Assembly: GCA_034530875.2 (NCBI GenBank)
Contig: JAVRCJ020000004.1
Location: 64,001 to 128,000 of the forward strand
DNA length: 64,000 nucleotides
Source of the DNA: Nostoc sp. DedSLP01
Lineage (GTDB): Bacteria > Cyanobacteriota > Cyanobacteriia > Cyanobacteriales > Nostocaceae
Reading direction: 5' to 3'
Shown one piece after another: positions 57,735 through 61,179 of this stretch. The notes under the pieces were generated by a model. The model saw nothing but the letters and a program-made list of their open reading frames with translations, ran no database searches and was not told the DNA's origin. Made by a program: the position numbers and the translations under genes. The first letter of the stretch is position 1. Every line of letters starts with the position of its first letter.

Positions 57735-58088
57735 ATGAGTGAAATTCCTCTTTGTACTATAGTGATTTCATCCCAGCTGCCTCCAAATGAAATAGAGTCT
57801 TTAGAAACATCCCTGGAGATGAATTCAATCAAAGTGCAAAAGTCACCCAGTCGGATAATAGGTGCAGATGACATAGTTTTTGTGGCTACAGTTATTGGAG
57901 GGATAGCAGCAACAGCCAATTTGATAGAGTACAGTATCAAAGTCGCTAAGGCAATCAATAATTGGCGGCAAAAATTGCGAGAAAAAGGAACAGAACCAAA
58001 AGGCACGTTAGAACACCCAAAACGTCCCCCACTGGATTTAAGCACCGCTACTGATGAAGAAATAGAAGAATGGCTGTCTCAAAAGTAG
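57735..58088 (+). CDS. Small hypothetical protein with central hydrophobic segment; overlaps the CHAT-STAND gene
   Basis: GAGGT RBS; 117 aa; SPSR-IIGADDIVFVATVIGGIAATANLIEYSIKVA; 19-nt overlap with the next gene. Confidence 0.75.
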   Translation: MSEIPLCTIVISSQLPPNEIESLETSLEMNSIKVQKSPSRIIGADDIVFVATVIGGIAATANLIEYSIKVAKAINNWRQKLREKGTEPKGTLEHPKRPPLDLSTATDEEIEEWLSQK

Positions 58089-61000
58089 CTAACAAAATTC
58101 CCCTTAGTCCAGGTTTAGAAAAAGTTACTAAACAAGATAATTCGTTCAGCAATCAAATTCTAATTTTGTTTTCAGCCCCTCTGTTGACTGAAGAGTTATC
58201 GCCAGTCGAAAATTTATCGATTCAGGAAGAAATTGATGCCATCGCTTTGGTGTTAGAGGATATATCTCACCCTATAGCAGTGGAAATAGTAGTTAAAGTA
58301 GCCACTTCACAGAATCTACAAGATGTGTTATCCCATCGTGTCAAACCACTGATTATTCATTTTATTGGTCATGGAATGAAAGATGGGGATAGTACAGCTT
58401 TGGTGTTAGAAGATGAAGTGGGGATTACTCGCTCTTTTAGTGAAGAAGAATTAGATATTGCTTTATCAAATCAAAAACAACCACCCTGTCAATTAGCATT
58501 ATTGAACGCCTGTCATTCAGAAAAGTTAGCTCAAGCTTTTATCAAAGCGGAAGTGTCTCATGTCATTGCGGTTAACGCCGAAGATAGAATTCTAGATGTT
58601 GCAGCCCGATGTTTTTCTCGACGAGTGTATCAGGCACTATTCAATCAAGATTCTGTTGCGAATAGTTTTTTATTAAGTCGTAATGCAGTTAAACTTGATG
58701 ATAAATTAAGAAAACTATTTAACTCTCAAACTTTTCAGCAAGGAGTTAATTTCGATGAAGCCTTCAAATTTCGATTGCTACCTCAAGCTTCTCATCATGA
58801 ATCGCTGATTATAGAACCAACAGATTCTCACCAGGTTATCTATCCCCAATGGTCAAATACTAATATTCCCCGTTACGATCCAAACTTTGTAGGACGCAGA
58901 CAAGAAATACATCAAGTAATTAAAGCACTAATAGAGTCCGATAAACGTTGTATTGCTCTACATGGGATGGGAGGAATCGGTAAAACTGCCTTAGCTTATG
59001 CTATTGGTCAGTGGTTACATGAACGCAACCGCTATAAGGATGGCGTTTGGTTTATTAGTTTGCGCGATACTGATTCTGTAGGAACGCTGATTACTAAAGT
59101 TAAACAGAGTCTCGAATTAAATAGTTTTGCTTTAGAGAAAGAGTTAAGAAATAGTCGAGTGTTGTTGATTCTTGATGATTTAGATAAATTGATTGAGAAA
59201 GAATCTGATGAACTCATTGAAGTTTTAAACTCACTTTTAGAACAGTGTCCTCATTTAAGGCTATTGTTGACTTCCCGCGATTCTCTTGTTAGGGATATTG
59301 TTTATTGCCATCAAGAAGAAGTTTGTAGCATGGGAGCATCAGAAACGAGAGAAATATTTAAAAAGTATGCGCCATCGCCAGCAGGATGGGGAGATAATGA
59401 TTTGGCAGAAGATTTTAATCTTTTAGTACAGTTTCTTGATGGTTATCCTTTACCCATTAAACTCGCAGCATCTTATATGGCAGAAACTCAATGCACTCTT
59501 AAGATGCTGTGTGAAGACTTGGACATTGAACCACTGGAAGTTCTTCGTTCTTATTCTCCTGAAGCAAGAAAAGAAAGAAGTCTGCGGATAACATTAGAGC
59601 GTTCTTTTGAAATGTTATCGGTAGAAGGGCAAGATATATTTCCTTTGTTAGCTTTCTTTCCTAGTGGATTAAGTCGGGATTTGGCGAGGGCTGTTTGGGG
59701 TAGAAGCGGAAATAAGGCTGTAATAGAACTGTTTAAGTTTTCAATGGCAGAAAAGTCTTCTACTGCATCTGATTGGAGAGTAACTTTGCCCGAACCTGCT
59801 CGTACTTATGCAGAAAGTAAATTACAAAAAGGAAGACGAATTGACTATCTTGCTCCGCAAGTTATGGATTTTTATTGTGGTAATTTCTGCAACAAAGTTC
59901 TCCAGTTTTTTGACAATGGAGATAAGAATAAAGGACAGCAATTACTTCTGGAAGAAAACTCAAACTTAGTTTCATTTCTTCAATGGGGTTACGAGAATGA
60001 AATAAGTTCAGATAAAATCTGTCGCAGTGCAAGGATAACAGCTTCCTTAAGTCCTTATTGGCGATGGATTGAAGCGAATCAAGACCCTTTGGCTAGATTG
60101 GAATTGGCAATCAAGGCAGCCCAAAGAAATCAGGATCGAGTGGGAGAAGATTTAGTGAGCAATGCCATCGCTGCTTTTTCTTCTAGAGAAGTATTTAAAG
60201 ATGTTCAATCTTGCGGACGAGAAAGTGATGCGTTAAACTCCTTTGAGTTTGAAACTGTCACCGTAAATCGTTGGGGCAAAATCATCGAACGAGAAACCAA
60301 GCAAGCCCAACACTTTAGCGAAGACCTGGGTGAAGGTATCACCTTAGAAATGGTCGTCATCCCCGGTAATACATTGATGATGGGTTCCCCAAAAGGGGAA
60401 GGATATCGCTCTGAAAAACCTCAGCATGAAGTGACAGTTCCATCCTTCTTCATGAGTAAGTATCCAGTCACCCAAGTACAATGGCGAGCCGTAGCAGCAC
60501 TACCCCAAGTTAACCGCGACTTAGAACCAGAACCATCGCGGTTTAGAGGAGATAACCGACCAGTAGAGCAAGTTTCCTGGTACGATGCGGTGGAATTTTG
60601 CGATCGCCTCTCCCAACATATAGGCAAAAGCTACCGCCTGCCTAGTGAAGCGGAATGGGAATATGCTTGCCGTGCTGGTACTGATACACCGTTTCATTTT
60701 GGAGAAACCATTACTGCTGAGTTAGCAAATTATGATGCCAGCACAACTTTTGCTGACGAACCCGAAGGAGAATATCGAGGAATAACCACCCCAGTAGGAG
60801 AATTTCCGCCTAACACCTTTGGGTTATATGATATGCACGGAAATGTCTGGGAATGGTGTCTGGACGATTGGCACGATAACTATGAAGGAGCGCCAACAGA
60901 TAGCAATCCTTGGTTTGATGATAATAATCTTTCTCAAAAAAAAGGAACAGCCGTGCTGCGGGGCGGTTCTTGGTTCAACTTTCCTAAGGACTGCCGTTTT

Positions 61001-61096
61001 GCGTCTCGCAGTCTCAACCTTAGGGCGGGGCGCGACGGCATCGACTTCAATATTGGTTTTCGTGTTGTCTGTGGGGTTACGGGGACTCTTAAGTAG
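58070..61096 (+). CDS. CHAT (caspase-like) protease + NB-ARC/STAND NTPase + FGE-sulfatase (CLec-fold) multidomain protein
   Basis: IIHFIGHG and LLNACHS (His/Cys dyad); FVGR..E, [58 protein letters not shown], RGGSW...GFRVVC. Confidence 0.9.
   Translation: [1008 protein letters not shown]
60950..61096 (+). other. Putative DGR variable region at the 3' end of the FGE domain
   Basis: GC-richer segment with NNY codons between GGSW and NIGFRVVC; inferred, since no template repeat or RT is in the window. Confidence 0.55.
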
Positions 61097-61152
61097 CCCT
61101 TTATACTTTTTACCTTTTGCACTTTACACTTGTTCTTTTTTTCTTTTCTTTT

Positions 61153-61179
61153 GTCGCCATAAGGCGACTCGATTTTTTT
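61153..61179 (+). terminator. Hairpin downstream of the CHAT-STAND-FGE gene (terminator and/or DGR cis hairpin)
   Basis: GTCGCC-ATAA-GGCGAC-TCGA-T7, preceded by a ~55-nt pyrimidine-rich tract. Confidence 0.65.

Follow-up and report, generated by a model that had tools for sequence, protein, structure and literature searches.

A cyanobacterial gene pair combining an EACC1-like small protein with a CHAT-STAND protein and a retroelement-type variable region, a probable protease-gated cell-death module

We analysed a stretch of 64,000 nucleotides (nt) from Nostoc sp. DedSLP01 (hereafter the window; NCBI GenBank assembly GCA_034530875.2, contig JAVRCJ020000004.1, positions 64,001 to 128,000 of the forward strand), taken from a genome assembly of 8.57 Mb in 113 contigs that is 99.78% complete. 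Two adjoining open reading frames (ORFs) in the window encode a protein of 117 residues and a protein of 1008 residues, the latter built from a CHAT protease domain, an NB-ARC STAND NTPase and an FGE-sulfatase/C-type-lectin domain. With moderate confidence, we read the pair as a two-gene module for abortive infection or cell death that resembles nucleotide-binding leucine-rich repeat (NLR) receptors: a protease would gate an EACC1-like pro-toxin, and a sensor written by a diversity-generating retroelement (DGR), now frozen, would control the protease. This kind of system is already published, and current family models do not recognise the small partner in this cyanobacterial clade. An initial annotation of the window had interpreted the same genes as a module of a small effector and an NLR-like protease receptor; its domain anatomy and its expectation of co-occurrence hold, and its proposed mechanism is the likeliest model.

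As the initial annotation had described, the two ORFs appear in the ORF listing as overlapping frames on one strand; they share 19 nt and are read in different frames. The parts of the pair are as follows.

57735..58088, plus strand: small ORF (ATG start, 117 amino acids), an EACC1-like partner and putative protease-activated membrane effector
57861..57872, plus strand: Gly43-Ala44-Asp45-Asp46, candidate site of CHAT cleavage in a loop that joins the N-domain to the hydrophobic segment
57873..57932, plus strand: hydrophobic segment of residues 47-66 (IVFVATVIGGIAATANLIEY), Gly/Ala patch at its centre
58070..61096, plus strand: large ORF (ATG start, 1008 amino acids), CHAT, NB-ARC STAND and FGE-sulfatase/C-type-lectin
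58145..58780, plus strand: CHAT (caspase-fold) protease domain, residues ~26-237, placed by Pfam, AlphaFold2/Foldseek and dyad conservation
58370-58372 and 58511-58513, plus strand: catalytic residues His101 and Cys148, placed by motif
58901..59539, plus strand: NB-ARC/NACHT-type STAND NTPase, residues 278-490, placed by Pfam and motifs
59540..60346, plus strand: linker, residues 491-759, with ortholog column conservation of 0.68-0.94
60347..61069, plus strand: FGE-sulfatase/C-type-lectin-fold sensor domain, residues 760-1000 (Pfam E 5.1e-55)
60956..61071, plus strand: DGR-type variable region, L963 to C1001, about the last 45 codons, an orphan in this genome
61094..61133, plus strand: stop codon and conserved 3' flank, common to variable-region genes of other genomes

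The N-terminal domain of the large protein is a CHAT protease of clan CD, with a profile match over the cut-off, a caspase fold and a His-Cys dyad. A Pfam scan of the full-length protein did not report CHAT at E ≤ 0.01; on the isolated N-terminal 270 residues, CHAT (PF12770) scored 34.4 bits against a cut-off of 24 (E 2.1e-8, residues 33-198). The AlphaFold2 model of this part, with a predicted local distance difference test score (pLDDT) of 75.6 and a predicted template modelling score (pTM) of 0.78, had the SAVED-CHAT filament 8tl0 as its best Foldseek match (E 9.1e-10, query TM 0.57), followed by MALT1, Csx29 and metacaspases. The dyad sits in HFIGHG (residues 97-102) and NACHS (residues 146-150), and both His101 and Cys148 are invariant in all 22 aligned sequences, three of which are only 24-46% identical. 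The intact dyad that had been noticed from the letters alone is thereby borne out by profile, fold and alignment.

The middle of the large protein is predicted to be a STAND NTPase, with two profiles over their cut-offs (NB-ARC at residues 278-490, E 9.4e-16, 58.3 bits against 23.5; NACHT at residues 293-434, E 7.7e-12, 45.8 bits against 26.7) and with the nucleotide-binding motifs in order. The NB-ARC motifs could be placed: GMGGIGKT (Walker A, residues 299-306) and LLILDDLD (Walker B, residues 365-372), together with TSR (residues 401-403) and LDGYPLP (residues 456-462). A Pfam scan of the following stretch (nt 59540-60340, residues 491-757) returned no family. The C-terminal FGE-sulfatase domain, also called in the initial annotation, was recovered over residues 760-1000; by sequence it is closest to PvdO (5hha, 2.5e-34) and to TvpA, a DGR variable protein of Treponema (2y3c, 7.4e-21). 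Catalytic formylglycine-generating enzymes use a pair of cysteines; the stretch RGGSW...GFRVV holds a single cysteine (C975). In public records, the large gene is named 'SUMF1/EgtB/PvdO family nonheme iron enzyme' and the small gene 'hypothetical protein'; Pfam and PADLOC models miss the small gene.

The pairing recurs among cyanobacteria. We counted it in three samples, which draw on overlapping genome collections, and the counts are not additive. A CHAT ORF lies directly 3' of the small ORF in 26 of 27 cyanobacterial loci (one genome per species), and in these 26 its start coincides with the end of the small ORF or falls slightly within it, the overlap usually being 16 nt. The paired loci belong to Nostoc, Scytonema, Stigonema, Westiellopsis, Fischerella, Calothrix, Symploca, Dolichospermum and others; three loci (L057, L063 and L071) run off their contigs, and two pairs that are just 42-46% identical (L072 and L073) have the same layout. 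In an even sample of 200 order-level genomes, the small ORF was present in five and had a close CHAT ortholog next to it in four. The family profile matched three of 400 phylum-level genomes, with a CHAT gene downstream in all three; the downstream gene is CHAT-STAND in G325 and CHAT-FGE without STAND in G501. A divergent pair in G053 consists of a 108-residue small protein (family profile E 2.5e-6), a one-base gap and a CHAT-NB-ARC gene (CHAT Pfam E 2.2e-25). The initial annotation had expected homologs of the small ORF beside CHAT-STAND genes, and in each of the three samples most or all of them have a CHAT gene there.

Across related genomes the module is scattered, being present in one of eight other genomes of the genus and two of 45 of the family, a patchy distribution of the kind seen for accessory defence genes. 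The 27 loci share no conserved flanking genes, and just one of them has a kinase match close to the module. Because its spread is patchy and its flanks are unconserved, the pair behaves as a self-contained accessory module.

The small ORF is evidently a real, conserved gene under purifying selection. Among 1.84 billion representatives, a search recovered 75 homologs at E ≤ 1e-3 and 30 at E ≤ 1e-10, mostly of 110-126 residues. A profile search of 90%-identity clusters with the family gave 123 proteins at E ≤ 0.001, close cyanobacterial ones; none of the best 120 of these 123 carries a Pfam label, and nearly all of the named ones are called 'hypothetical protein'. Entropy at the three codon positions is 0.40/0.24/0.76 across 20 gap-free orthologs, and comparison with 19 orthologs gave 462 synonymous and 416 non-synonymous codon differences. 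An antisense ORF (57707..58045) was ruled out as a real gene, having a stop in 10 of 20 orthologs. The small ORF is therefore more than a chance frame, given its homologs, its codon-position pattern and the breakage of the antisense frame in orthologs. The domain also occurs in a fusion protein of 535 residues (P0155), at residues 422-528, where the N-terminal part is transmembrane-rich and coiled-coil and has a weak YLATT match.

The small protein is best read against the EACC1-caspase two-gene system, listed as 'System 4' in PMC7159879 (Kaur, Burroughs, Iyer and Aravind 2020). In that system, the product of the 5' EACC1 gene is small and has alpha+beta ends and a single conserved helix bearing a small-residue patch, and the 3' gene encodes a caspase-superfamily protease followed by one of ~50 alternative domains, STAND NTPases included; the system was described as widespread among actinobacteria and as occurring sporadically in proteobacteria. 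In K. racemifer, the caspase-Avs12 protein cuts EACC1 at a site modelled as Asp49 (Evans et al. 2025, bioRxiv 10.1101/2025.11.14.688446), which yields fragments of 5.7 and 7.1 kDa, only the C-terminal one being toxic. The same study reports that cleaved EACC1 permeabilises liposomes, and in its model two C-terminal strands complete the sheet formed by the N-terminal fragment.

The AlphaFold2 model of the small protein (pLDDT 82.2, pTM 0.73) comprises strand b1 (residues 4-12), helix a1 (17-29), strand b2 (33-38), a loop, strand b3 (46-53), the long helix a2 (57-83), a hairpin of b4 (90-94) and b5 (97-101), and helix a3 (107-115). As modelled, it has the EACC1 layout, in which a single hydrophobic helix with a small-residue patch is flanked by alpha+beta elements. 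The Kyte-Doolittle mean over 19 residues peaks at 1.9 in the hydrophobic segment, and its patch (Gly55-Gly56/Ala58-Ala59-Ala61) is largely shared among 109 close homologs (G55 in 74, G56 in 99 and A59 in 101). The preceding Gly-Ala-Asp-Asp loop is closer to invariant in the same homologs (G43 in 105, D45 in 106 and D46 in 105) and lies where the model is least confident, residues 41-50 (mean pLDDT 66) and the next block (61) being its two lowest blocks. With Asp49 of K. racemifer EACC1 as the parallel, the CHAT protease may cleave in this loop, and a cut after Asp45 is predicted to yield fragments of 4.9 and 8.0 kDa.

Structure searches found no specific counterpart of the small protein. Foldseek against the PDB returned nothing at E ≤ 1e-3 for the model; a wide VIA-align search peaked at Z 7.9 with a generic ferredoxin-like alpha+beta fold, inside the tool's stated background; and a profile search of PDB sequences with the family gave nothing meaningful. 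Complex prediction for the CHAT domain with the small protein scored 0.00 against a mark of 0.32, a result that carries no weight either way.

At the level of family profiles, some members of the small-ORF family lean towards EACC1. Thirteen of 46 were matched by the Pfam EACC1 profile PF19953 at E ≤ 1, the best at 5.7e-4; these matches are colinear, and no other family matches repeatedly; four members cover most of the 107-position profile (positions 7-99, 10-90, 23-98 and 5-100). An ESM-Atlas neighbour cluster has PF19953 in 10% of its members (score 0.89), which we treat as a lead only. A search with the 13 EACC1-leaning members found just five proteins, all of them query members, and a metagenome scan with alignment A5 found one partial locus (L078). 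The term 'EACC1' is absent from the text supplements of PMC7159879, and other supplements may list the clade. Taken together, we think it quite likely that the small protein is homologous to EACC1, and somewhat likelier still that it works like EACC1. A second and different EACC1-like/caspase pair is found in the same cyanobacterial family (L077; G427:C3:84475-87762), where a 127-residue protein scoring 23.0 bits against the EACC1 cut-off of 23.6 precedes a Peptidase_C14 protein that carries helical repeats.

The C-terminus of the large gene has the signature of a DGR variable region. Column conservation among 19 full-length orthologs is mostly 0.8-0.96 in the CHAT and STAND parts; the final three blocks of 20 residues fall to 0.63, 0.71 and 0.51. 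Through the gene body, the third codon position is the most variable (18 sequences; for example, 0.30/0.14/0.63 bits in the CHAT part). In the same 18 sequences, codons 969-971, 974, 981-984, 990, 993 and 994 reverse this pattern, with 1.2-1.9 bits at positions 1-2 (0.83 at position 2 of codon 993) and 0.3-0.8 at position 3, and the variation among orthologs in these codons takes the form NNC/NNT.

A 4.8-kb contig of Westiellopsis (L095; G536:C13:1-3000) holds such a variable region together with a 352-residue reverse transcriptase and an Asn-rich template repeat, and we compared variable regions with this repeat over 110 aligned core positions. All 12 mismatches of the cognate Westiellopsis variable region fall at template adenines, as do 17 of 20 in the Westiellopsis ortholog of the large gene. 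For the window gene, for which this template is heterologous, 18 of 21 substitutions (86%) lie at adenines, plus a 6-nt indel, because of which we do not regard the Westiellopsis repeat as the window gene's own template. With more than 80% of substitutions at adenines, the C-terminus is classed from its sequence as a DGR variable region. Frames for reverse transcriptases of 356-384 residues adjoin variable-region-like matches in two other genomes.

Three genes of N. carneum have the variable region and ~40 nt past the stop in common with the window gene, namely the ortholog, a Peptidase_C14-FGE gene, and a pair of Pepco and Peptidase_C14-FGE; the shared 3' flank may be a DGR homing element. 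In locus L094 (G533:C1:2494000-2506000), the Peptidase_C14-FGE gene (629 residues) stands back to back with the pair of Pepco and Peptidase_C14-FGE (783 residues), and these genes adjoin an IS200-like transposase. Two extra N. carneum matches were considered as template repeats and rejected, being variable regions of other genes.

What the analysis shows is the domain anatomy, conservation of the catalytic dyad, a recurrent gene pair, a conserved Asp loop and a DGR signature; by analogy with the characterised EACC1 system, we propose the following sequence of events. The DGR-written surface of the C-terminal C-type-lectin (FGE-sulfatase) domain would bind a ligand, presumably an invader protein, and binding would lead the NB-ARC NTPase to oligomerise. 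Oligomerisation would bring the N-terminal CHAT domains (His101/Cys148) together and activate them by proximity. The active protease could then cut the EACC1-like pro-toxin in the Gly43-Ala-Asp45-Asp46 loop and free the autoinhibitory N-domain of ~4.9 kDa. The remaining C-terminal fragment of ~8.0 kDa, with the hydrophobic segment, the long helix and the beta-hairpin, may oligomerise in the membrane, form pores and kill or arrest the cell, possibly as a defence against phage.

Several observations weigh against this reading. On the side of the small protein, PF19953 (cut-off 23.6 bits) does not match the window ORF, its scores on the homologs are 12.9-20.3 bits, EACC1 is over its cut-off in none of 401 cyanobacterial genomes, and hhalign of the family against the single, sub-threshold EACC1-like protein L077 (23.0 bits) gave a probability of 0.7%. 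The Asp loop is lost in the most distant members of the family, and PADLOC v2 reports nothing for the small ORF and holds no model for the pair. The pairing also has exceptions: one small-ORF homolog (G160) has a pentapeptide-repeat gene on its 5' side and no CHAT gene adjoining, and in the exception among the 27 loci, Chroococcus L070, DDE transposase genes occupy the CHAT-gene position. Other copies are decayed, including two from which STAND is gone (L050, where CHAT is fused to FGE, and G501), one with a ~950-nt insertion within STAND (L056), one with a C-terminal frameshift (L054) and one with an internal stop in the small ORF (L051, excluded from the codon counts). Across genera, identity is 77-92% in the CHAT domain and 74-92% in the CHAT and STAND parts together, a level that is unusually conservative for a defence gene.

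The DGR itself is also missing. Searches of this genome by blastn with the 3' ends and by six-frame motif found no template repeat; its five RGGSW...GFRVV ends all lie within long ORFs, and blastn with the Westiellopsis template matched only the window variable region (74.8%, 135 nt) and a neighbouring kinase gene (35 nt). No DGR reverse transcriptase was found in the 99.78%-complete assembly. The two RVT_1 genes of the genome are a group II intron reverse transcriptase and an unclassified enzyme of 600 residues (G000:C5:360475-362277; L010:994-2796) with only sub-threshold matches to group II intron, Drt4 and Drt3a models, and the Westiellopsis DGR reverse transcriptase is 24-25% identical to them by tblastn. 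One identical variable-region allele was present in contigs of three of three runs, all from one study that may be the one this DNA came from, and contigs drop rare variants. Because the genome has neither a template repeat nor a DGR reverse transcriptase, we regard the variable region as an orphan and its sequence as a frozen allele. The initial annotation had called the sensor possibly diversified: a DGR-type variable region, with its NNC/NNT codons and its substitutions at adenines, is there, and the DGR that such diversification calls for is not.

One alternative would make the small family, instead of a diverged EACC1, an independent cyanobacterial class of membrane effectors released by a protease, and the NLR pocket a surface written by a DGR in trans and frozen on loss of the retroelement, as would also apply to N. 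carneum. We consider it unlikely; if true, the module would offer a natural case of an anticipatory receptor turned germline-fixed.

The same biochemistry could also serve a job other than phage defence, such as programmed cell death, differentiation or stress signalling in response to an endogenous or environmental ligand in filamentous cyanobacteria. The near-housekeeping conservation of the CHAT and STAND parts across genera fits such a role, and there are precedents: PMC7517822 argues that DGR-diversified C-type-lectin proteins with kinase, caspase and CHAT domains tune cyanobacterial regulatory pathways, and EACC1-protease modules fused to DnaK-like chaperones have suggested stress roles (bioRxiv 10.1101/2025.11.14.688446). 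A core developmental gene would not be expected to be as patchy as this one (5/200 at order level, 3/400 at phylum level and 1/8 in the genus), nor do its flanks, unconserved among the 27 loci with a kinase match in 1/27, suit one. The immediate neighbours, kinase-FGE genes and a Uma2 gene, include no phage or defence-island genes. In favour of defence, PADLOC's kinase PD-T4-6, a defence kinase, is matched by the flanking kinases (E 2.2e-108), and hypervariability of the sensor suits an arms race. On balance, we judge a non-defence role rather improbable.

A further possibility concerns the small protein, which may be a membrane-anchored sensor or adaptor that activates CHAT, leaving the protease to process itself or to cut other cellular targets. 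We hold this to be improbable, as EACC1 has been shown to be cleaved, with its C-terminal fragment as the toxin (bioRxiv 10.1101/2025.11.14.688446), the large protein ends in a binding domain and not in an effector that auto-processing could release, and the near-invariant G-A-D-D loop is as expected of a substrate site. The idea has a history all the same: a sensor/adaptor role was the original proposal for EACC1, drawn from the conserved helix with its small-residue patch (PMC7159879), and the window protein has that patch; other CHAT proteases act on separate downstream targets, and the structural neighbours found here include SAVED-CHAT 8tl0 and Csx29. The module might also be a relic that no longer functions, once a target of a DGR and stranded by retroelement loss. 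This would accord with the missing template repeat and reverse transcriptase and with the decayed copies elsewhere (L050, G501, L056, L054, L051 and L070), and is very improbable in view of two intact ORFs with dyad, Walker motifs and Asp loop, of purifying-selection codon patterns in both genes, and of N. carneum, where three genes with variable regions persist and RVT_1 matches number 0, so that DGR-less retention recurs.

Around the protease-gated module, two further features were found by scanning.

57686..57714, plus strand: promoter-like site, TTGAAA, 17-nt spacer and AAAAAT, 21 nt 5' of the small ORF
61153..61168, plus strand: GC-rich hairpin and T run, 6-bp stem and 4-nt loop, a consensus match only

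Both are consensus matches of classes no commoner than in shuffled sequence: the promoter-like site agrees at 9 of 12 consensus positions, with eight sites in the scan against 9.3 in shuffles, and terminator-like hairpins numbered six against 3.9 +/- 1.8. The hairpin, which the end coordinate of the initial annotation (61170) had taken in, could be a terminator or a DGR-target cruciform, and the genome's other four FGE genes have no such hairpin on their 3' side.

Just 5' of the small ORF, the intergenic stretch at about 57575-57636 of the window contains a dispersed repeat of ~50 nt, with about 40 blastn matches (72-91% identity) on some 20 contigs of the genome. Paralogous Ser/Thr kinase genes lie on both sides of the module (55730-57574, and from 62992 past the window end at 64000) and are 80% identical over their first 300 nt. 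The first has an FGE-sulfatase end and a '4-Cys prefix' domain match, and it is this one whose PD-T4-6 match is quoted above. The second extends past the window, with an FGE-type end just outside it (C4:128693-128788); 20 nt of its 3' end are identical to the large ORF, and 35 nt are common with the Westiellopsis template repeat. Elsewhere in the genome, FGE-bearing proteins likewise have N-termini of conflict systems, EAD10 or Ser/Thr kinases, as in an EAD10-FGE protein on G000:C17 (L003:553-1761; EAD10 E 2.3e-29) and another kinase-FGE protein on G000:C36 (L096:485-2257). Within the window, 61999-62781 encodes a putative endonuclease of the Uma2 family (Pfam E 2.2e-18), whose C-terminus has an AERQRAE repeat; 25447-27315 holds an array like those of clustered regularly interspaced short palindromic repeats (CRISPR), in which a ~37-nt repeat (GTTTCAATCCCTAATAGGGATTTTAGTTAATTGCAAT) occurs 26 times at a spacing of 69-79 nt; and 48056-48304 contains a 21-nt unit in tandem, in at least eight overlapping copies.

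What the window adds is a conserved cyanobacterial clade, a pinpointed candidate cleavage loop and an orphan, apparently DGR-written variable region in the sensor. If our reading is right, the operon unites a pore-former-like pro-toxin, an NLR-type switch and a DGR-written sensor surface, and its near-invariant candidate site would make it a compact system for probing how hypervariable receptors are coupled to death effectors. The orphan variable region raises the question of what maintains such receptors after diversification stops. The initial annotation had allowed that the pair might already be catalogued, which turns out to be so for the type of system (PMC7159879, PMC13581612 and PMC7517822) and not for PADLOC v2.

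Among known systems, the large protein resembles Avs and other bacterial NLR-like proteins in its tripartite arrangement of effector, NTPase and sensor, and PMC13581612 catalogues STANDs with FGE-sulfatase-like sensors, the sensor class seen here. It differs from Avs4, which it matches only weakly and at the level of the NTPase (PADLOC 1.3e-3; NCBIfam 6.6e-3, 13.7 bits against a cut-off of 1500); the other PADLOC matches to this region are likewise weak (TRIP13 1.6e-5 and PDC-S60 1.7e-4). Cyanobacterial DGR targets offer a second comparison. They too have the variable region at the 3' end of an FGE-sulfatase domain with NNC/NNT codons, and kinase, orthocaspase and CHAT-like N-termini are among the architectures of their C-type-lectin proteins (PMC7517822); targets with such N-termini were also reported in multicellular bacteria (PMC10907252). 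Unlike them, the window gene has no cognate template repeat or reverse transcriptase in its genome.

Pepco (Trypco; PF24393)-protease-FGE modules, reported among protease modules with FGE sensors (bioRxiv 10.1101/2025.11.14.688446), share with the window pair a small 5' effector and a caspase-fold protease fused to an FGE/C-type-lectin sensor. The likeness extends to the N. carneum Pepco pair, which has the same family of variable region and 3' flank, and to SsPepco, which is 117 residues long. Pepco is a constitutive beta-barrel and becomes active when a C-terminal tail is removed after Ile, whereas the window protein is predicted to have an N-terminal autoinhibitory domain cut at Asp. The small ORF was rejected as a Pepco: PF24393 matched neither the ORF, nor 45 aligned homologs, nor anything in the genome, and the model scores 98.9 bits on the N. 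carneum protein, so the model works.

The EACC1 system offers the most extensive parallels. Its 5' product, like the small protein here, is a non-enzymatic protein of ~115 residues with alpha+beta ends and a hydrophobic helix with a Gly/small-residue patch; its 3' gene, too, opens with a protease of the caspase superfamily, after which come variable domains (STAND in the window). The Asp loop is at about the position of the mapped site (Asp45/46 here, Asp49 in K. racemifer), the predicted fragments of 4.9 and 8.0 kDa compare with 5.7 and 7.1 kDa, and EACC1-protease modules also occur with DGR-diversified domains (bioRxiv 10.1101/2025.11.14.688446). The differences are that the clade here is cyanobacterial and that the protease is CHAT and not Peptidase_C14. 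The pair thus fits the EACC1 description feature by feature, short of formal membership, and the chain proposed for it, from sensing through oligomerisation and cleavage to death, is the mechanism shown experimentally for the EACC1-caspase-Avs12 pair. It would extend protease-gated small-effector systems by one conserved cyanobacterial clade, adding to current views and overturning none.

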